From Fibrobacterota bacterium (GTDB lineage Bacteria > Fibrobacterota > Fibrobacteria > UBA11236), in assembly GCA_043753995.1 (NCBI GenBank), contig JAYUVP010000114.1, positions 1-10,041 of the forward strand: 10,041 bases of DNA, read 5' to 3'. A program made the position numbers and the translations under genes. A model generated the notes under the pieces. That model was given only the letters and a program-made list of their open reading frames with translations, was not told the origin of the DNA and did not search any database. Shown in pieces: positions 1 to 9,898 of this stretch. Position 1 is the stretch's first letter. Each line of letters starts with the position of its first letter.

Positions 1-1782
1 AGAAGGGGAAGGAGTAGCGGTCTTGGATGAAGGGGGTGCACTGCGAACCCCCGCAGCCATCAATTTGGACTGGGCCAAAGGGGCAAATTCACTTTGAGGG
101 AAATTCTCCTTTAAGTAGACATAGGCCGACTTGGCCGAATCCAAATTGCGAGAGGTAGCGAGGCCATCGGGCCAACCTTCGTAAAGCATGGCAATGACAA
201 ATTGGGCCTTGGCGGCGGCGTCGCTGTTTGGATGTTGAGCAACTACCTGGGAATAGGCGGGAATGACTTCCGCAATCAAATCGCCACCTCCGAATCGTGC
301 TTTTTCTGCCATGAGAAATAGGGCATGCGCCGAATCCTCCGTGGTTTGCACCGTGGGCTTAAGCCCGAGATTGCGTTCCGCTTGTTGGGCAAAAGGTGTC
401 CCCGGATAACGTTCCATGACGAGTCGGTAAAGCGAATCCGCCTTAACCTTATCTTGTCGATACTCTTCTTGAATATAGGCGCGGGCATAATTGGCGCGCT
501 TCGTAAAAAGGGAATCCCGCTTGGGGGAGTCGGCAATACTATCGAGGCGAATGAGAGCGCTGTCGATTTGATCGAGCTGGAAAAGGAAAAGCTCGGAAAT
601 CATGAATTCATCGCGCCAAGGTGCAGCGCTGTCGACCGGCGCCGCTTTGCCAGCTTTTCGGTATTCCGCCAAGCGAGCCAAGGCCTCGCCGCGTGCTCGG
701 GCGAGTTTGGCATAATCGAAATCCGGGCCTTGCGCGGCGGAGGAGTCATAGCTGACCTTTGCCTCGGCTTCTGCATGAAAGATTCGCAATTCATGTTCCC
801 CTCGGCGATACCAAGCTTCGGCGGATAAGGCTGTATGGGGCGCGGCGCGTGTCACCTTGCCTATCAAGGCAAAGCCTTCTTTGTCTTGCTTTAATGCCAA
901 ATGGCCTTCGGCCATTTTCAAATGAATGGGCGCCAGGGAATCGCGAAAGACCTTGATACTGGTAAAGGGTTGAAGCTCGGCAATACCTTCGGAATATTGC
1001 TTCAACTGATAAAGCGCATCTGCTGACAATACTGCCAAACGAAGACGCTGGCTCACGGGCAAGACGGCGATTTCAGGCGCGCGAGCATGCTGGCGGGCAC
1101 GGTCCCATTGTTTGAGACGATAAGCCAAGTCGGCTGCCGCAGCATGAGCACGAGCCCTATCCAACGGGGTTTTGGCCGCGTCCTTGAGGAGGCGCTCATA
1201 GGCTGCCAAGGTCGCTTCATCGCTGCCGCCAACACCTTCCAGTTTGGCTAGGCAAAGCAAGGCTTCGGTGCGTAAATCATCTTCTAACGGTGTGGCCAAC
1301 ATGCGCTCCAAACCGGAACGCGAGGCCAAATATTGGCCGGTTTGATAAAGGGCTATGGCCCGATGCACCTCGGCCTTGGGCACCTTGGTATCCAGCGGGA
1401 AATATTGCAAGAATTCATCGTATTTACCGATGCAACGCGTCCACTCCCCTTCCTGAAAATAGGCCTCGGCCATCAGGAAAACGGCTTTGTTTTGCCAGGC
1501 CTTTTCTTCGGGATAAAGCTCTAGGACCTTGGAGCATTTGGTCACACATCGCTCAAACTTCATCTTCTCTTCGGTGCTCGCCAGCACCGAATCATTGGGG
1601 TTTTTCTCTAGCCGATTTTCACGTAGGGCCATGGCCTGACGATAAGCCTTTTCGGCATTGTAATAGGTATTGAAATAGACGCAACCGCTCAGGGTCCCAA
1701 GCGAGACAATCAAAAAAAGACCTAACCTCAGGGAGGAGAGGGATAATTTGGCAGGAAAGACTCGAAAAGGCAGGAATGGCAT
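1..1782 (-). CDS. Tetratricopeptide-repeat (TPR) lipoprotein, partial (runs off the window start); possibly SprE/PorW- or BamD-like
   Basis: Manual translation of the minus frame from ATG at 1782 shows no stop codon down to base 1 (594 codons). N-terminus MPFLPFRVFPAKLSLSSLRLGLFLIVSLGTLSGC has a hydrophobic stretch and lipobox LSGC (Cys codon 1681-1683), then VYFNTYYNAEKAY. TPR-like helical repeats include KAVFLMAEAYFQEGEWTRCIGKYDEFLQYFP, AYSQVVAQHPNSDAAAKAQFVIAMLYE and AYVYLKENFPQSEFAPLAQSKL. A Pro/Ser-rich stretch lies at the window edge. The exact start is uncertain because the frame is open further upstream. Confidence 0.85.
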   Translation of the reverse strand, partial: MPFLPFRVFPAKLSLSSLRLGLFLIVSLGTLSGCVYFNTYYNAEKAYRQAMALRENRLEKNPNDSVLASTEEKMKFERCVTKCSKVLELYPEEKAWQNKAVFLMAEAYFQEGEWTRCIGKYDEFLQYFPLDTKVPKAEVHRAIALYQTGQYLASRSGLERMLATPLEDDLRTEALLCLAKLEGVGGSDEATLAAYERLLKDAAKTPLDRARAHAAAADLAYRLKQWDRARQHARAPEIAVLPVSQRLRLAVLSADALYQLKQYSEGIAELQPFTSIKVFRDSLAPIHLKMAEGHLALKQDKEGFALIGKVTRAAPHTALSAEAWYRRGEHELRIFHAEAEAKVSYDSSAAQGPDFDYAKLARARGEALARLAEYRKAGKAAPVDSAAPWRDEFMISELFLFQLDQIDSALIRLDSIADSPKRDSLFTKRANYARAYIQEEYRQDKVKADSLYRLVMERYPGTPFAQQAERNLGLKPTVQTTEDSAHALFLMAEKARFGGGDLIAEVIPAYSQVVAQHPNSDAAAKAQFVIAMLYEGWPDGLATSRNLDSAKSAYVYLKENFPQSEFAPLAQSKLMAAGVRSAPPSSKTATPSPS

Positions 1783-1863
1783 ACCCGCATAGGATACAAA
1801 ACTAGGCAGGGTCCTTGCCCGTTGCTTCCCCGCTCTATACCATTTATCCCTGGATTTGACGAG

Positions 1864-1878
1864 GACCATGGCATGGTC
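1864..1878. promoter_or_regulatory. Perfect inverted repeat GACCATG-G-CATGGTC, candidate operator in a divergent promoter region
   Basis: 7-bp arms with a 1-nt spacer, between the divergent TPR and ABC genes, 2 nt after a TTGACG hexamer (1856-1861). Function is inferred only. Confidence 0.35.
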
Positions 1879-1943: not shown

Positions 1944-2612
1944 ATGCTGAATGTCCAAAGCCTGGAATATGAACCCTCTCATGGAAGAGGCAGAACCCTA
2001 TGCCAATTGAATTTTCAACTCGGTCCGGGCGAAATACTCGGGATCCTGGGACCCAAGGGTTCTGGGAAGACCACGCTTCAGAATATCCTCATTGGAATTT
2101 ATCGCAACTATACAGGTGCCGTTTTTTTTCAAGACAAGGAATTGAAAAATTGGAGTCGGGACTTTTATGAATCCATCGGAACGATTCTACCGCCACCGGC
2201 CTCGAAACACGGGTCCAAACTCACGGCTCATGAGCACTTGGAATATTTTGGATCGCTATATCGCGGACCCCTGGAACCCATTTCAGACTTACTAGCAAGC
2301 GTGGGATTAAAACAGGTTGCTGACAATCACATCCGCGACTTTACTCCTGGCATGCTAGCGCGGTTAAGCCTGGCGCGAGCACTTTTGCATAAACCCCATT
2401 TGCTTTTATTATACGAACCACTTGCTGATATGGAAGTCGAGAATCATGAGGAAATGCTGCAACTCATTCAACTGCAAAAACGCCGTGGGCGTGCCGTAAT
2501 TCTATTTACAAATGACGAGAGACTGACCAAGAATACATGCGATCACATCGTCAAAATCGAAAAGGGTAAAATTTCCGATACCTTTCACTCTCCGTATGGG
2601 GACATGTTGTGA
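1944..2612 (+). CDS. ABC transporter ATP-binding protein (drug/fluoroquinolone-exporter-like), with degenerate motifs
   Basis: Walker A GPKGSGKTT; signature region FTPGMLARLSLARAL; Walker B region LLLLYEP. The segment YRNYTGAV...KELKNWSRDFYESIG...KLTAHEHLEYFGSLY resembles Rv2688c-type exporter ATPases. Its stop overlaps the next start (GTGA). Confidence 0.85.
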   Translation: MLNVQSLEYEPSHGRGRTLCQLNFQLGPGEILGILGPKGSGKTTLQNILIGIYRNYTGAVFFQDKELKNWSRDFYESIGTILPPPASKHGSKLTAHEHLEYFGSLYRGPLEPISDLLASVGLKQVADNHIRDFTPGMLARLSLARALLHKPHLLLLYEPLADMEVENHEEMLQLIQLQKRRGRAVILFTNDERLTKNTCDHIVKIEKGKISDTFHSPYGDML

Positions 2613-3289
2613 ATCGAATAGTCTCATCGCTCACTCATGATATTCGCATTCCATTCCGCACGGGATTCATCACCGCCTCCTGGATTGCCACCTTGATTTG
2701 GATTTTAGTTTTAGGCCGCTTGCCTAAAACCGGCATCGCTTCGCATTTTGTCCTTTTGCTGGCCTCCCCTCTTTTTTTGCAAACTTTTTTGGGAGTTCTC
2801 CATCAAATCCGTCGCGAGCAAGCCGAAGGCACCTTTACCCTGCTTCGCGCGACACCGTTAAGACCGCATGAATACTTGGCTGCCAAGGCCGGAAGCTGGA
2901 TTGTTCTAGGCTTAAGTCAATCCTTGCTTGTTTATACCCTGGTCCTAGGTTTGCACGCTGGAATCGGTTTTCTAGCCCTTGGTATTGTCACCCTGATTTC
3001 CTTAGCGACCTTGGTGGGTTTCCTAGTCGCAGTGCAATATCCTATACCACGTTTTCGAATAATTCCCGTTGGCCTCATCCTCTTTATAGTCGCTTTGACT
3101 TGGCTGCCCAATCTGGGTTTTTCATTAGGGCCATGGAAATACGCTCACCCCTTACAAGCCTCCTTGACCCTGATGGAATTGTCCGTAAATCCTGGATCAA
3201 TCGGAGATTGTCTTTATGGTTTGGGTTACGGTTTTTTTTGTTTCGCCCTGGCGCTTGTTTTTTGCAAACGCGTTTTAGCACGAAATTAG
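2609..3289 (+). CDS. ABC-2-type exporter permease (fluoroquinolone-export permease-like)
   Basis: About 6 hydrophobic segments and an ABC-2-like loop REQAEGTFTLLRATPLRPHEYLAAK. The GTG start overlaps the ATPase stop by 4 nt, suggesting translational coupling. Confidence 0.8.
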   Translation: MNRIVSSLTHDIRIPFRTGFITASWIATLIWILVLGRLPKTGIASHFVLLLASPLFLQTFLGVLHQIRREQAEGTFTLLRATPLRPHEYLAAKAGSWIVLGLSQSLLVYTLVLGLHAGIGFLALGIVTLISLATLVGFLVAVQYPIPRFRIIPVGLILFIVALTWLPNLGFSLGPWKYAHPLQASLTLMELSVNPGSIGDCLYGLGYGFFCFALALVFCKRVLARN

Positions 3290-3291
3290 AA

Positions 3292-5025
3292 CTACTCCGT
3301 TCTCGGCTTTCCCGTTTTGTCGCAGGAATAAAAAGACTTCCAACCTGCTACGGGTTTTAGACCCTTGCCCTCCACCCAATCGCTCCAGGCGCAGGTGGGC
3401 ATGCAGCAGTCTTGCATGGTGGTGGTATGGTATTGATCATTCGGACCGGTAAAGGTTCCATTGGCTCCCGCTTGGGCCGGGGTTTGCACGGCAGGCAAGG
3501 GTAATGGCAAGGTTTCCTCTTGCAAGCGGCAGCCGGTGACGCGCGTTAGGTTTTCGGGGCATTGCACGCGCTTGGCGCGGACTTTCCAGTTTTGGTGGTA
3601 GAGCGATTCCACCTGATTGGTTTGCAGACAGGATTTACGGGTATCGGTGGTCACTTCGGCCGATACACTTTGGGCTTGGTTGCATTGTTGCGTAATGGTT
3701 TCTCGGCATTGCGCGGACTTTAACCCAGCGGCCGTAGGTGGCCACGCAGTTCCGGTGCAGACAGGGTAGCGCAGAAAGGAAATGCCTCCCGACCCCGGAT
3801 TTTGCCAGGGAAAACCTTGGTATAGGAATTCATTGAACTTCGTCGTATTGCCGAAGGCGGGGTCATTATAACAGGAGTTGAAGGCGCCATATCCACCGGC
3901 GCCCATAAAGATGTCGAAGCCTTTCGGGCCGCTGGCAGCGGTATTAAAGCTTTGCACCACCATGGCTTTGGGTTGCGGCAACTCAGGGAATTGCGGGGAA
4001 CTGGGCTCGGGAGTTTCGAAGATGAGTTGATAGCATTGGCAACAGCTGCTGCTATTGTTGTCCAAGCCGCCCACATCGGCGTCATGCCCTACCACACCGT
4101 ATTGAAAAGGGGGATTGCTTCCGTCACCCCAGCCATATTGGCGGGCATCGTCCTTGGTGGCTTGCGTCATGGCGGAGCTGTACATCATGAAGCGCGGACA
4201 GATGAAGTTTTTAGGCAGATCGCCTTTGGAAGGATCTTCGGGTGGGGAGCAGGAATTAGCCACTCGGCATTCCCCGCCGCAAGCGGAATTGCGATCTCCC
4301 GCGATGCAGCCCTTGGCATAGAATTGGTTCATGCAACCATTAGGAGGATTCAGTTTATAATCCGTCACGGAAGGATCAAGTGATAGTATGAATTGGATGC
4401 CACTCACCTGTCCCGCAGTCAAGACGAGGGTAGCAGGCAAGTAGCCGGCCTTCGAGGCGATGAGGGTGTCTCCCGTAGCTCCCATTTTCGCGGCGGCGCG
4501 AGTGGAGGACAACGGGCCTGCGAATACAAGCTCTCCGGTTTTCGAATGGCTCGACACTTGAAAGGGAAGGGAGGATTCCTCGACGCCGATGTGGGCTTTA
4601 ATGAGATAAAGCCCGGGCGACAATTTGTGCTGGGCTGGGTGGACTTGGTAATTCCCGGCATTCATCCTTTTGCTGACCAAAGTTTTGAGCTTCCGTCCTT
4701 CGGTGCTGTAAAGACCTATTTCGACGAATGAATTCAGGCCGACCACCGAATAGGACAGGACGTCCTGTTGCCATCGGAGGGGGCTGGCCTTCATGGCTCT
4801 CGGTTGCAGACCCGTCGGTATCAGGGTCCAACTTCCATCGGTCCCAGTGGTGGCTGTTTTGCCCGTGGGGGCATGGGTGACAAGAGCGCCCGCGAGCCCA
4901 GCCCCGGATGGGTCCTTGACGAAACCGCTGAGAGTTTGAGCCACGGCCCCTGCCGCTAGGAAAAGGGCCAGACCGCTGGCCAAAATCATTCGGGAAGGTA
5001 TTGTAAAGAGCGAAGCAAAAACCAA
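3292..5025 (-). CDS. Secreted glycoside hydrolase family 45-like endoglucanase (circularly permuted catalytic domain) with N-terminal Ig/carboxypeptidase-regulatory-like modules
   Basis: Signal peptide MILASGLALFLAAGAVA-Q (alternative ATG at 4989; the TTG at 5025 has GGGGGA upstream). GH45 motifs are SSCCQCYQLIF, KAMVVQSFNT, GFDIFMGAGGYGAFNSC, KRVQCPENLTRVTGCR and TTTMQDCCMPTCAW. The catalytic region is Cys-rich. Confidence 0.85.
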   Translation of the reverse strand: MVFASLFTIPSRMILASGLALFLAAGAVAQTLSGFVKDPSGAGLAGALVTHAPTGKTATTGTDGSWTLIPTGLQPRAMKASPLRWQQDVLSYSVVGLNSFVEIGLYSTEGRKLKTLVSKRMNAGNYQVHPAQHKLSPGLYLIKAHIGVEESSLPFQVSSHSKTGELVFAGPLSSTRAAAKMGATGDTLIASKAGYLPATLVLTAGQVSGIQFILSLDPSVTDYKLNPPNGCMNQFYAKGCIAGDRNSACGGECRVANSCSPPEDPSKGDLPKNFICPRFMMYSSAMTQATKDDARQYGWGDGSNPPFQYGVVGHDADVGGLDNNSSSCCQCYQLIFETPEPSSPQFPELPQPKAMVVQSFNTAASGPKGFDIFMGAGGYGAFNSCYNDPAFGNTTKFNEFLYQGFPWQNPGSGGISFLRYPVCTGTAWPPTAAGLKSAQCRETITQQCNQAQSVSAEVTTDTRKSCLQTNQVESLYHQNWKVRAKRVQCPENLTRVTGCRLQEETLPLPLPAVQTPAQAGANGTFTGPNDQYHTTTMQDCCMPTCAWSDWVEGKGLKPVAGWKSFYSCDKTGKPRTE

Positions 5026-5256
5026 AAGGTCCCCCAGGAAAAACTGGATTCGAATCGACGTCTTAGTGATAATTAAGACCCTTGGGTTTAAGGCTGGGCT
5101 GTGGGAAAAGGAAAAAGAGCATATAAAATACTTGGTGTGAGCTAGGAAGCTGGCTGCCGATGGAAGAGGATATCAGCGGTTTCATTAGGGGGACAACCCA
5201 GGGTCTGAATAATTTGAATATGGCACGCCCATCTTTCCATCCTGTACAATGATGGC

Positions 5257-6873
5257 ATGAGTCTACCTAATATATTAAGGGTCTTTTCCCGCTTGGCTAT
5301 ACACCGTAAGGTCTTGGCCATGGGCGGTCTTTTCTTAATAGCTTTTGTAATATTCGTATCCTTTTCTTTGAATACTTTCAATACGGTCAAGGTGCGAGGG
5401 CCCTATTATGCTGCTATAGTGCAAAGTAAGGATTTGATTGCGGATATCCTACCGCCTCCCGAATATTTGATTGAGTCGTACCTCAATATATTGGAATTGG
5501 CATATGAAAAGGATGCGACCCAATTGCCTAGGCTCATCGAAAAGAGTCAAAGCCTGCGAAAAGATTTTACAACTCGACATGATTTCTGGTTGGTTGATTT
5601 GCCTGAAGGCGAAATCAAAAATCTTTTAATGCAAAACGCCTACTCACCCGGCATGGAAATGCTGAAATTGCGAGACGATTCCTTTATACCCCTTATTCAA
5701 AAAGGGGATACCGCCGGTGCCAGAAAACTTGCACAAGGAGAACTCAAGGCAAAATACCAGGAGCATCGGGCGGCCATTGATCGCATCGTCAGCCTTAGTA
5801 ATGAAAAATACCTGGCCGATGAAAAGGCAGCGGACATTATCATTACTCGCCGCACCTGGATGCTTGCCGGCCTCGGAGTCGGAGTGGTGCTGGCTGTCTT
5901 AGCCCTCAGCGGTTTTGTGAGCAGCCAAATCAAGGCCATAATTGAGAACAGCATTGCCGCACTGAACCGCGTGGCGGAAGGTGATTTGACGGTCAAGATG
6001 AATAATCAAAACCTCGGCGAAGCCCAAGCGATGGACGCGGCAATAGAACGCGCCACACTTTCAGTACGCAACATTTTGAATGAGATCACAGAATGCTCAA
6101 CCAAGCTTTTGGATCGACTTGTCGATCTTAAATTAGTGAACGCGGAGTTGTCGCAATCCACCGCAACCACCCATACCAAGGCTCATACCTGCAACCAATC
6201 GGCTCAGTTGGTGGACGAGAACTTGCAAACCATCGCTTCAGCCTCACAAGAACTCCAGGCGACCATCACCGAAATCGCGAAACAAACCAATCATGCCACC
6301 TCTATTACGGACAAAGCGAAGGTTATGTCCCTTCAATCGAATCAATTGGTGAAGCATCTCAATGAAAGCAGCCAAAATATTGGCGGTATTTTGCAGTTAA
6401 TCAAAAGCATTTCTGAACAGACTAATTTACTGGCATTAAATGCCACGATAGAAGCCGCACGGGCTGGGGAAATGGGTAAAGGTTTTGCCGTTGTGGCGCA
6501 TGAAGTGAAAGAATTGGCCATGCAAAGTTCAAACGCCAGCGAGCAAGTCAGCGTCACCGTGCAATCGATTCAGGCAGATAGCAGCACGGTCATGGAAAGC
6601 ATTTCTAACATCCTTCAAATTATTGGCCAGATCAATGCCGTACAAGGTGAGGTTGCAAGCGCTGTCGAAGAGCAGACGGCAACCACGGCCGAAATCTCCC
6701 GTAATATTACCGAAGCAGCGCAAGGCAGCCGAGACATCACCTTAAGCATATCCGAGGTGGCGGGCTCGGCACAGAAGGCCAATGTCAGCCTCAGCCATAC
6801 CTTGACAGGTGCCAATCACCTTGGCGACATCGCGGGCGAACTAAAAGGACTAGTGAGTCGTTTTCGTATTTGA
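5257..6873 (+). CDS. Methyl-accepting chemotaxis protein (transmembrane chemoreceptor)
   Basis: TM1 [16 protein letters not shown]; helical periplasmic domain with [21 protein letters not shown]2 [25 protein letters not shown]-like [10 protein letters not shown]; conserved hairpin tip [37 protein letters not shown]; methylation-like AVEEQTATT. The start could instead be the ATG at 5320. Confidence 0.95.
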
Positions 6874-7191: not shown

Positions 7192-7893
7192 TTGCAAGTC
7201 GAACGTGTTCTCGATATTTTACGAGAAGTTTTCTCGAAGCTCGCTATCGAGGAGCCGTCTTTCGCGAATCCGCCGTCAAACATTTCGTCTGAAACAAGCT
7301 TAGATGCCCTGCATGTGACCGAGGCCAATGTGGGTGATTTCGCCCGCGAATTACGTTACCGCTTGGGCGGTACGGCTCTCAATGTCGAGCTCATGTACCT
7401 CATGCAAAAGGCCGTCCAGGCCACTTCATCGAATTTGAGCCATTACCATACCCTCGGCGATGTCGCCAAGCATATTCAGGCCAGCCTGCATCACGGCATA
7501 CCCAATCCCATGGTGGTCTATGTCGATGATGAGGAGGAAAACCTTTTCGTTTTCCGCCGCAAGTACGGCAAGCGTCTCAACCTCAAGACTTTTTCCGATC
7601 CGCTTGAAGCCTTGTCCTTCATCTCCCGAAGCCCCGAAACGGTATTGGTTTTAACCGATGAGGTGATGCCGGGCATGACGGGTAACCAGCTATGCGACGA
7701 GGCACACAAGACGCGGCCATTTCTCAAGTTCATACTCATCACGGGCAACCCCGCAGGCGACGATAATTTGTTGCATCGCTCCCTGCGCCATGGCCGCTTT
7801 TACGATTTCATCAACAAGCCACTCGATTTCGACGGCAAGGGCGAAGAGTATTTCGACACCATGAGCCGCGTCTTGTCGGGGGATTATTTCTAA
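7192..7893 (+). CDS. Response regulator: N-terminal ACP-like domain + C-terminal receiver (REC) domain (paralog 1)
   Basis: TTG start with GGAG RBS at 7181-7184. REC motifs are VVYVDDE, LVLTDEVMPGMTG (phospho-acceptor D156), FILITG and FINKP. The N-terminal ~100 aa resemble an ACP (VLDILREVF...ISSETSLDALHVTEA...TLGDVAKHI). No DNA-binding domain. Confidence 0.85.
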   Translation: MQVERVLDILREVFSKLAIEEPSFANPPSNISSETSLDALHVTEANVGDFARELRYRLGGTALNVELMYLMQKAVQATSSNLSHYHTLGDVAKHIQASLHHGIPNPMVVYVDDEEENLFVFRRKYGKRLNLKTFSDPLEALSFISRSPETVLVLTDEVMPGMTGNQLCDEAHKTRPFLKFILITGNPAGDDNLLHRSLRHGRFYDFINKPLDFDGKGEEYFDTMSRVLSGDYF

Positions 7894-7954: not shown

Positions 7955-9172
7955 ATGCAAGACCCATACTCCACAGGTGATCGAAAGCCGTCCACTGTGA
8001 ACGGCCCGACTTGGTTCGAAACCACTATGAACGAATACCTCGTGCGGTTTCGTGCCTATGAGCCGTTTCCCTTTGATCAACCGCCCGACACCCACAATTA
8101 TTTGAGCTTGCACCAAAACGACTACCTACGCTTGAGTGGACACCCCGAAGTCAACTACGCAAAAAATCAGTCCATTTCCAGGTCTGGGGGCGGTCCCATG
8201 GCCTCCATCACCTATGGTGGCGACACGGGCGAGCACCAGCAATTTCGGTTGGCCCTACAAAAGACATTGAATGTGGGCGACGTCATGCTCACGACAGCAG
8301 GCTGGACTGCCAATGTGGGCTTGGTGGAATCCCTTGCCTCACCCAATACTCCCGTATACCTCGACTACCAGGCGCATGCCTCCTTGTGGGATGGGGCCAA
8401 ATTGGCTGGCGCTAAAATGGTACCGGTGCGCCACAACTCGCCCGCCCACCTCGAACAACGCATCAAACGCTATGGCAAAGGCTTGGTATGCATCGACGCC
8501 TTTTACAGCACCGACGGCTGCGTGCCCGACTTGAAGCGCTATGTCGAAATTTGCGAGGCCTATGATTGCATGCTCATTCTCGACGAGGCCCATTCTTTCG
8601 GCATGATAGGTCCGAATGGCGGAGGGCTCGCGGTCGAACTCGGGCTGGAAACGCGAGTGCCCATACGCACGGTGAGCATGAGCAAGGCTTTGGGCGGCAA
8701 TGGCGGCTTCATCGCCGCCACCGAAGAGGTGGTCTGGTTTCTCAAGCACCGCGCCCGCTCGGTGGTCTTCAGCTCAAGCCCGTCGCCAGCCACTTCGGCA
8801 GGCTCGCTGGCCGCCCTGCAAATCGCCATTCGCGAGCCGGAGCGGGCTCGGAATTGCCTCGAAATGGGGGCCTTGCTGCGCAAATCTCTTATTGGACGAC
8901 AAATCGATCCCGGCCTCAGCGCAAGCCAGATCATTTCCCTGTATTTCGATCAAGACCCTTTGGCGGCGAAGTTTTACGGCTTGTTGCGCCAGCGGGGAAT
9001 TTTGGCTTCGGTATTCACGGCACCGGCTGTGCCACGCGACACCAGCTTGGCGCGCTTTTCCATCCACAGCGACACGACGCCCGAGGACATGGTCAAGCTC
9101 GCCGATGCCTCAGCCGAATGCCTGGCCATAATGGGAGTCAGGGCTACTCCCCCTTACAGTCTCCTCGATTGA
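7955..9172 (+). CDS. PLP-dependent alpha-oxoamine synthase family enzyme, CqsA/LqsA-like (putative alpha-hydroxyketone autoinducer synthase)
   Basis: Family motifs are NDYLRL, DEAHSFG and SMSKALGG (PLP lysine K244). CqsA-like segments are GWTANVGL, PNTPVYLDYQAHASLWDGA, RYGKGLVCIDAFYSTDG, SQIISL and SVFTAPA. The family call is firm; the CqsA-like subfamily call is moderate. Confidence 0.8.
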   Translation: MQDPYSTGDRKPSTVNGPTWFETTMNEYLVRFRAYEPFPFDQPPDTHNYLSLHQNDYLRLSGHPEVNYAKNQSISRSGGGPMASITYGGDTGEHQQFRLALQKTLNVGDVMLTTAGWTANVGLVESLASPNTPVYLDYQAHASLWDGAKLAGAKMVPVRHNSPAHLEQRIKRYGKGLVCIDAFYSTDGCVPDLKRYVEICEAYDCMLILDEAHSFGMIGPNGGGLAVELGLETRVPIRTVSMSKALGGNGGFIAATEEVVWFLKHRARSVVFSSSPSPATSAGSLAALQIAIREPERARNCLEMGALLRKSLIGRQIDPGLSASQIISLYFDQDPLAAKFYGLLRQRGILASVFTAPAVPRDTSLARFSIHSDTTPEDMVKLADASAECLAIMGVRATPPYSLLD

Positions 9173-9226: not shown

Positions 9227-9898
9227 ATGAACAGCCAACAAGCCTATGCCATCCTTCGCGAAATCGTGGCGGCCCTGGCCGCGCGTGGGGAAACCACCAA
9301 GTTACTCCCCGAGGCCCCGCAACTCGAAAAAACCCTGCATGAGCAAGGGGTGGATCTCACCGCCTTTTCCGAACTCATCGAAGAGCTGACCCAGCGCTTT
9401 CACGGCAAGGATTTTCGCCTGAACGGTTATCTAATACCCGAGGAATACTATTACCTCACTACAGCCAAGCTTGTCGATGCGGTGGCTTTGGCATTCAAAG
9501 CTGGCACAAAAAACCCCTTGGTCGTCTATGTCGATGACGAGGAAGAGAACCTCTTCATTTTCAATCGCAAGTTCGGCAAGAAGCTGAATCTCAAGACCTT
9601 TGGCGACCCCCGCACTGCGCTCGAATATATCCGGAGCAGCGAGGAAGTCGGTTTAGTCGTGACCGACGAGGTCATGCCGGGCATGTCAGGAAATGAATTG
9701 TGCGACGCCGTGCACGCGACCAAGCCCCTGATGAAGTTCATCCTCATTACCGGCAATCCCAATAGCGACGGCGATCTTATGTACCGGGCCCTACGCAAAA
9801 ACCGTTTCTACGAATTCATCAATAAGCCCGTCGACTTTGATGGCAAGGGCGAGGAATACCTGAACCTCATCCAGGGCATTCTCGAATTCGATTGGTGA
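9227..9898 (+). CDS. Response regulator: N-terminal ACP-like domain + C-terminal receiver (REC) domain (paralog 2)
   Basis: REC motifs are VVYVDDE, LVVTDEVMPGMSG (D147), FILITG and FINKP. The N-terminal region AYAILREIV...EKTLHEQGVDLTAFSELIEELTQRF...LTTAKLVDAV follows the ACP helical pattern. Confidence 0.88.
   Translation: MNSQQAYAILREIVAALAARGETTKLLPEAPQLEKTLHEQGVDLTAFSELIEELTQRFHGKDFRLNGYLIPEEYYYLTTAKLVDAVALAFKAGTKNPLVVYVDDEEENLFIFNRKFGKKLNLKTFGDPRTALEYIRSSEEVGLVVTDEVMPGMSGNELCDAVHATKPLMKFILITGNPNSDGDLMYRALRKNRFYEFINKPVDFDGKGEEYLNLIQGILEFDW

Follow-up and report, generated by a model that had tools for sequence, protein, structure and literature searches.

Can a GH45 domain be built with the strand that carries its catalytic base at the end of the chain rather than at the beginning? 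GH45 is a well-studied and industrially used cellulase family, and to our knowledge all of its solved members begin with the Asp10 strand. The question is raised by a gene on the reverse strand of a stretch of Fibrobacterota DNA of 10,041 nucleotides (the window), in which a first-pass annotation had placed the first ~35 residues of a GH45 domain at the C-terminal end of the protein. We find that this GH45 (subfamily-A-like) domain is almost certainly circularly permuted.

The longest open frame (3292-5025, reverse strand) begins with a TTG at 5025 and encodes 577 amino acids; residue numbers throughout refer to this frame. The TTG had been taken as the start of the protein. The likelier start is the ATG at 4989, giving a gene at 3292-4989 (reverse strand) that encodes 565 amino acids; this is the length of the protein in the record, and a signal-peptide-like stretch begins there. 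Residues 13-29 (4939-4989, reverse strand) are a likely Sec signal peptide, recognized by eye from a hydrophobic core and an AVA end before Gln. A sigma-70-like promoter was not found at the gene, and terminators were at chance level. Among the sequencing runs listed as containing this stretch none was of RNA, and the 43% of run X1 that was covered gave no match.

Following the signal peptide, residues 31-68 (4822-4935, reverse strand) form a CarboxypepD_reg-like segment (Pfam PF13620, E 1.3e-7, at the cut-off), which is the first half of an N-terminal beta-sandwich module. In this module (4378-4935, reverse strand) the carboxypeptidase-regulatory-like sandwich is split by an Ig-like insert that is similar to T9SS type A sorting domains (about residues 88-160, 4546-4764, reverse strand, with approximate borders), and this sorting-like domain is N-terminal rather than C-terminal in the GH45 protein. 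TIGR04183 matches the insert in nine of 17 homologues, in one of them above the cut-off; it does not match the window's own protein, for which the NCBIfam search gave nothing. The whole module has four other tblastn matches in its own genome.

We note some features of the other genes in the window. The GH45 gene is convergent with 1944-3289 (forward strand), the two stops being 3 bases apart; this encodes an ABC ATPase and an FLQE3-type permease. By eye the Walker B Asp of the ATPase is changed to Tyr and the H-loop His to Asn, so that it may be degenerate. Beyond it, a TPR protein with BamD/YbgF/PorW-like matches below cut-off (1-1869, reverse strand) runs off the contig end. On the other side a methyl-accepting chemotaxis protein (5257-6873, forward strand; Pfam) is divergent from the GH45 gene. 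Two paralogous proteins with 44% identity (7192-7893 and 9227-9898, both forward strand) each comprise an N-terminal part of ~100 amino acids, acyl-carrier-like by eye, and a receiver domain. Between them lies a PLP acyltransferase (7955-9172, forward strand), for which NF005526, an alpha-hydroxyketone-type autoinducer synthase, was the best NCBIfam model, with E 9e-89 but a score below the cut-off. The three are possibly a signalling-lipid or autoinducer module.

The body of the catalytic domain is formed by residues 226-511 (3493-4350, reverse strand), corresponding to all of canonical GH45 beyond about residue 37. From the alignment it would carry barrel strands 2-6. A connector of residues 512-532 (3430-3492, reverse strand) then leads from the C-terminus of the canonical domain to its first strand, which lies in the relocated segment of residues 533-577 (3295-3429, reverse strand). 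This segment corresponds to canonical residues ~5-36, and holds strand 1, the base Asp, the equivalents of Cys11, 12, 16 and 31, and that of Trp18. The motifs follow one another in the order first described, i.e. CCQCYQLIF (328-336), KAMVVQ (353-358), GFDIF (369-373), RVQCP..TGCR (486-500), TTTMQDCCMPTCAW (534-547) and FYSCD (565-569), and both catalytic-position Asp are found at the codons assigned to them. By alignment D371 (3913-3915, reverse strand) is equivalent to the catalytic acid Asp121, and D539 (3409-3411, reverse strand) is aligned to D10 of 1OA7 and so to the catalytic base Asp10. The spacing between the last barrel Cys and the base Asp has a median of 47 residues (measured in 164 of 177 rows), and the GH45 domain closes the protein in 154 of the 164 rows measured. 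The connector had been called a Pro/Ala-rich linker, but is predicted to be ordered, with a helix (pLDDT 97-98).

Several sequence comparisons show the inverted order. A phmmer search of the PDB returned just two GH45 subfamily-A sequences (E 1.5e-5 and 1.9e-5). Residues 5-32 of 1OA7/1L8F fall on the last 45 residues of the query, while chain residues 80-140 and 182-202 match earlier parts of the query, in order; the pieces are individually weak, and the E of 1.5e-5 is the value for the whole sequence. With a profile of 124 homologues ten GH45 sequences in the PDB were found (E 1e-15 to 4e-10), and all five of the PDB chain alignments listed for these ten matches had the inverted order. Separate profiles for body and tail were run on 21 canonical GH45 frames, which had been recovered from 30 loci within the phylum. 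In 21/21 of these the match of the tail profile was upstream of the best body match, the opposite of the order seen here. In profile-profile comparison the tail matched the N-terminal segment of canonical bacterial GH45 (template 14-53, E 3.6e-11, prob 97), and the body matched the canonical bacterial GH45 template at 73-234 (E 3e-15). A language-model atlas placed GH45 clusters first (0.94).

It had been expected that the Pfam GH45 model (PF02015) would match the protein twice, in inverted order. In fact there was a single match of 27.1 bits, marginally above the cut-off of 27, covering only profile positions 65-148. Among the matches listed of the 499 homologues described below, PF02015 was annotated in 41 of 120. 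A second permuted protein in the same genome and the Polyangium protein had no PF02015 match at E 0.01, and a genome-level search of the window's own genome gave 0 matches at E 1, though the translated protein reaches the cut-off. In a short sponge protein the Pfam match begins at profile position 37, and the cut site is therefore placed between canonical residues ~33 and ~45. Because only about one in three of the closest members is recognized by Pfam, the number of glycanases in Fibrobacterota, some myxobacteria, giant viruses and sponges has probably been underestimated.

The structure of residues 221-577 was predicted with AlphaFold2 (pLDDT 96.3, pTM 0.94). The HTTTM sequence of the tail was modelled as a strand, and the pLDDT of the tail was 96-97. 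All of the top ten Foldseek matches were GH45 subfamily A, and against viral structures there was no match under E 1.5. An order-preserving aligner placed model residues 6 to 284-292 onto chain residues 25-28 to 207-214 in all ten subfamily-A structures, the same alignment being numbered 48 to 234 in two Neurospora entries. The superpositions had Z of 11.7-12.8 and rmsd of 2.9-3.1 Å over 169-177 residues, and the next structural match had Z 4.2. What is left unaligned is the first ~24 residues of the chains and the model's own tail, the very pieces that are homologous by sequence. The tail is predicted to insert as strand 1 of an ordinary GH45 double-psi barrel, stapled by four disulfides (C540-C385, C541-C259, C545-C328 and C568-C276), so that D539 would face D371 across the groove as base and acid. 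A single-sequence AlphaFold prediction of the Oopsacas protein (pLDDT 32) was set aside.

The proposed disulfides can be compared with patterns of cysteine loss. From 423 rows of the protein search, of which 321 were near full length, we took a set of 140 non-redundant near-full-length homologues, with no motif filter. In this set C540 was lost twice, and C385 was absent both times (background loss 2%); C545 was lost three times, with C328 absent in 3/3 (background 3%). Where C541 was lost, three times, C259 was absent in two cases and unaligned in the third, and where C568 was lost, twice, C276 was absent in one case and unaligned in the other. Background loss rates of the partner cysteines are 1-7%, and unpaired losses occurred once for C385, once for C328 and four times for C259. 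With 1-3 events per pair the numbers are small, and some of the losses may go back to a common ancestor. In the alignment with 3ENG, C328 and C385 correspond to Cys86 and Cys135, and the disulfides of EGV we take to be 11-135, 12-47, 16-86 and 31-56. Of three canonical proteins with Gly at Cys11, two are also without the Cys135 equivalent. The co-loss between tail and body is partner-specific, and is evidence independent of the structural model. Sequence and profile comparisons, the predicted structure and the joint loss of cysteines all support the transfer of the canonical first ~35 residues to the C-terminal end.

We observed that several canonical-order Fibrobacterota GH45s depart from the D-Cys/Gly-Cys pattern downstream of the base Asp, e.g. 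WDSC in L093. Such loci are L093, L094, L095, L096, L099, L103, L104, L106 and others, pointing to further disulfide variants.

A search for homologues with the same order, which had been suggested as a check, gave 499 proteins with E ≤ 0.001, forming 163 clusters at 50% identity. In GTDB, 231 permuted stretches were confirmed from 279 pattern matches, of which 80 were kept. One repetitive protein of 3694 amino acids (P0229) was treated as a false match. Named records come from Fibrobacterota, among them Chitinispirillaceae, and from Myxococcota, among them an Anaeromyxobacter and the cultured Polyangium fumosum DSM 14668. The permuted form is found in 28 of 296 Fibrobacterota genomes and canonical GH45 in 178; 14 have both. 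In the largest Fibrobacterota family 149/151 genomes have canonical GH45 and 0/151 the permuted form. The distribution in the phylum of Polyangium is patchy and the permuted form is not common there, being found in three of a sample of 251 genomes, with canonical GH45 in two. The window's own genome carries its second permuted GH45 on contig C110 (L001:836-2590, forward strand), 40% identical to the first. This paralogue belongs to another branch of the tree, and many Fibrobacterota genomes carry both types.

Homologues were also found among records named as viral and as sponge. In IMG/VR 11 of 71 pattern matches were confirmed, ten of them labelled GVMAG, with neighbouring genes such as those for TBP, ribonucleotide reductase, XRN and helicases. 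Most rows of a sponge-type clade are 58-81% identical to P0231. Two are sponge-named: that of Oopsacas minuta (P0335, KAI6645643.1) is on a 1.06-Mb contig and its permuted order was seen directly, and that of Geodia barretti (P0412, CAI8055960.1) is a partial sequence of 219 amino acids. Unnamed rows of the clade are on contigs of up to 3.5 Mb, with several copies per large contig. The sponge-named contigs may be of symbiont or viral origin; the clade had no close-identity match among viral contigs (0 loci) or JGI metagenome contigs (5 loci, ≤35% identity).

A tree was calculated from the body only (92 rows, 204 columns, quick IQ-TREE with SH-aLRT only), leaving out three short permuted rows and one short canonical row, with canonical sequences other than those of fungi and animals. 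A long branch parts 23 canonical from 69 permuted rows (SH-aLRT 100). The GVMAG rows cluster together (SH-aLRT 98), and the window's protein and its paralogue are placed apart among myxobacterial-type rows. The permuted form may have had a single origin, and directions of transfer between lineages are only suggested. Solved GH45s and GH75 have the base near the N-terminus (PMC9485262), so that the permuted order is most likely the derived one. Canonical GH45 genes can lie in tandem, but two GH45 domains in one frame, as expected of a duplication intermediate, were not found in 139 loci.

The two catalytic positions are nearly invariant. Asp is found at the acid position (D371) in 318 of 321 near-full-length homologues and at the base position (D539) in 320. 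The equivalents of Thr6 (315/321), Asn179 (318/321) and Trp18 (295/321) are also kept; the numbers 6, 18, 119 and 179 are in part what we take to be those of canonical GH45. Other residues have changed. By alignment the position of Tyr8 is Met in 300/321 rows (M537 in the window's protein) and that of Ala74 is Gly in 281/321 (G313), while that of Asp114 is Ser here (S365) and Asp in 141/321 rows, mainly sponge and viral. The replacement of RYW by TMQ, already reported in the first-pass annotation, is confirmed, and to it are added the family-wide change of Ala74 to Gly and that of Asp114 to Ser in the window's protein. In addition His477, two residues before the conserved Asn479, is present in 317/321 rows. 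The assignment of Asp10 as catalytic base and Asp121 as catalytic acid is given in PMC6509783, PMC9485262 and PMC10909974, and Tyr8, Ala74 and an assisting Asp114 are named as conserved GH45 residues in PMC6509783 and PMC10909974. PMC6509783 reports beetle GH45s with changes of Asp114 and of Ala74 to Gly, in several of which, though not in all, no activity was detected, and also shifts of substrate to xyloglucan and glucomannan in beetle GH45s.

CBM2 or CBM3 is fused to the domain in 12 of 120 homologues, among the matches listed of the 499, and four of these were checked. The end of one homologue (P0232) looked CBM1-like by eye; it had no Pfam match and was left uncounted. A secreted inverting endo-beta-glycanase is likely, given the near invariance of both Asp and the presence of CBM2 or CBM3 in some members. 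We think it rather probable, on sequence and model, that the permuted domain is exported and folds as an ordinary double-psi barrel that would cut beta-1,4-glucans (cellulose, mixed-linkage glucan or xyloglucan) outside the cell by an inverting two-aspartate mechanism. Its -1 subsite would be remodelled by Tyr8 to Met, Ala74 to Gly and the family-specific invariant His477. The label endoglucanase is one that we infer. There are six GH5 and eight GH9 matches in the window's own genome and no match to canonical GH45. Some homologues are adjoined by genes for GH9 and glucuronoyl esterase, though across 92 loci no conserved gene neighbourhood was found, and the largest clusters resemble opposite-frame ORFs.

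The same permuted fold and two-Asp chemistry could instead serve another glycan, such as glucomannan, xylan, chitin or chitosan, or a beta-glycan of algal or protist walls. We regard this as possible, if less probable. The replacement of Tyr8, Ala74 and Asp114 and the invariant His477 beside Asn479 would fit such a change, as would members in aquatic giant viruses and sponges. Of the 28 genomes of the phylum that have the permuted form, 14 have canonical GH45 as well, which hints at a role other than that of the canonical enzyme. The beetle enzymes that moved to xyloglucan and glucomannan provide a precedent (PMC6509783), and GH75 chitosanases use the same barrel (PMC9485262). Set against this, it is CBM2 and CBM3 that are found fused to the domain, although both families can bind chitin as well. 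Furthermore, every one of the closest folds is a subfamily-A endoglucanase, and the equivalents of Trp18 and Asn179 are kept. On a broader view, there may have been one ancient permutation, with the active site rebuilt for a non-cellulose glycan (e.g. of algal or protist walls) and the gene spread among myxobacteria, Fibrobacterota, giant viruses and sponges; we offer this tentatively, as a somewhat longer shot. If it is true then sponges hold an unrecognized animal GH45 lineage, set apart by its chain order from the GH45s found in insects, molluscs and springtails, and the enzyme of giant viruses is one that degrades host walls and is mostly missed by domain libraries.

It is improbable that the protein is a non-hydrolytic one, either wall-loosening in the manner of expansins and loosenins or glycan-binding. 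Several accessory catalytic residues have been lost, and expansin-like proteins have the same barrel and acid Asp (PMC10909974); but the base Asp, which the same paper describes as absent in non-hydrolytic relatives, is kept in all but one of 321 rows, and expansin-type folds superimpose with Z of ~2.3 compared with 12.7.

Still less probable is that there is no true permutation, i.e. that a GH45 body without its N-terminus is followed by a GH45-like tail that leaves the barrel incomplete. The aligner pairs the model from residue 6 with the chain from residue 25, and the N-terminal arm may partly overlie canonical 25-45. Yet the confidently modelled tail places a strand at the expected motif, the cysteines of tail and body are lost with their specific partners, and there is no second segment from which strand 1 and Asp10 could come. 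An artefact of assembly or a chimeric contig can be dismissed: although the window belongs to a metagenome-assembled genome, and the one contig that covers 3200-5100 without differences or joints is not independent and may share the window's source, the identical order is found in the 499 proteins, the 231 GTDB stretches, the 40%-identical paralogue on another contig and the cultured P. fumosum DSM 14668, and the agreement of hundreds of independent homologues excludes the misassembly against which a check had been advised.

With the GH45 domain taken as permuted, the displacement of a catalytic residue from one end of the chain to the other becomes a natural test of the tolerance of the double-psi barrel to rewiring. 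It also provides new termini for engineering, and the substituted subsite residues make the enzyme a candidate for a new specificity. The cultured P. fumosum strain and the sponge records KAI6645643.1 and CAI8055960.1 allow direct testing. A description of a permuted GH45 was not found in searches of PMC and bioRxiv; where GH45 and circular permutation were mentioned together, permutation occurred only in a reference on CBMs. This widespread circular permutation of GH45 is real and apparently undescribed.

Among known systems, GH45 subfamilies B and C, expansins, loosenins, cerato-platanins and MltA have the double-psi barrel and the acid Asp in common with the permuted domain, but their Z to the model is 4.2 or lower, and 2.5 or lower for PcCel45A of subfamily C. 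Subfamily C and the non-hydrolytic proteins are without the base Asp, whereas the permuted family keeps it. The GH75 chitosanase V-Csn, encoded by a soil virus, is likewise a glycanase built on a double-psi barrel, and its acid and base occupy equivalent sites; but the Asp that corresponds to the base (D36) lies close to the N-terminus in V-Csn, unlike that of permuted GH45 (PMC9485262). There was no GH75 Pfam match at E 1, and V-Csn and GH75 were not among the fold-search matches listed. The canonical bacterial GH45s of the same phylum (L093-L123) have homologous tail and body and a similar modular secreted architecture; they differ from the window's protein in chain order, and are separated by the long branch from all 69 permuted rows.

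The closest relatives are in GH45 subfamily A, where we compared Cel45A/EGV of Humicola insolens (2ENG, 3ENG, 4ENG and 1HD5), Cel45A of Thielavia terrestris (5GLX and 5GLY) and of Neurospora crassa (6MVI and 6MVJ), the Melanocarpus albomyces enzyme (1L8F and 1OA7) and CaCel of Cryptopygus antarcticus (5H4U). The permuted domain shares their fold as predicted, with 25-30% identity over the superimposed residues, both catalytic-position Asp, the equivalents of Thr6, Trp18 and Asn179, and most cysteines. Unlike them it has the first ~35 residues at the C-terminal end, an order inverted with respect to 21/21 canonical proteins, and is ~350 amino acids long compared with ~210, with insertions and extra Cys pairs. 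It differs further in the changes of Tyr8 to Met, Ala74 to Gly, Asp114 to Ser and His119 to Gly, and in the invariant His477. Since it departs from the canonical order and in three accessory residues, we classify it as a permuted GH45 variant rather than as a member of subfamily A.
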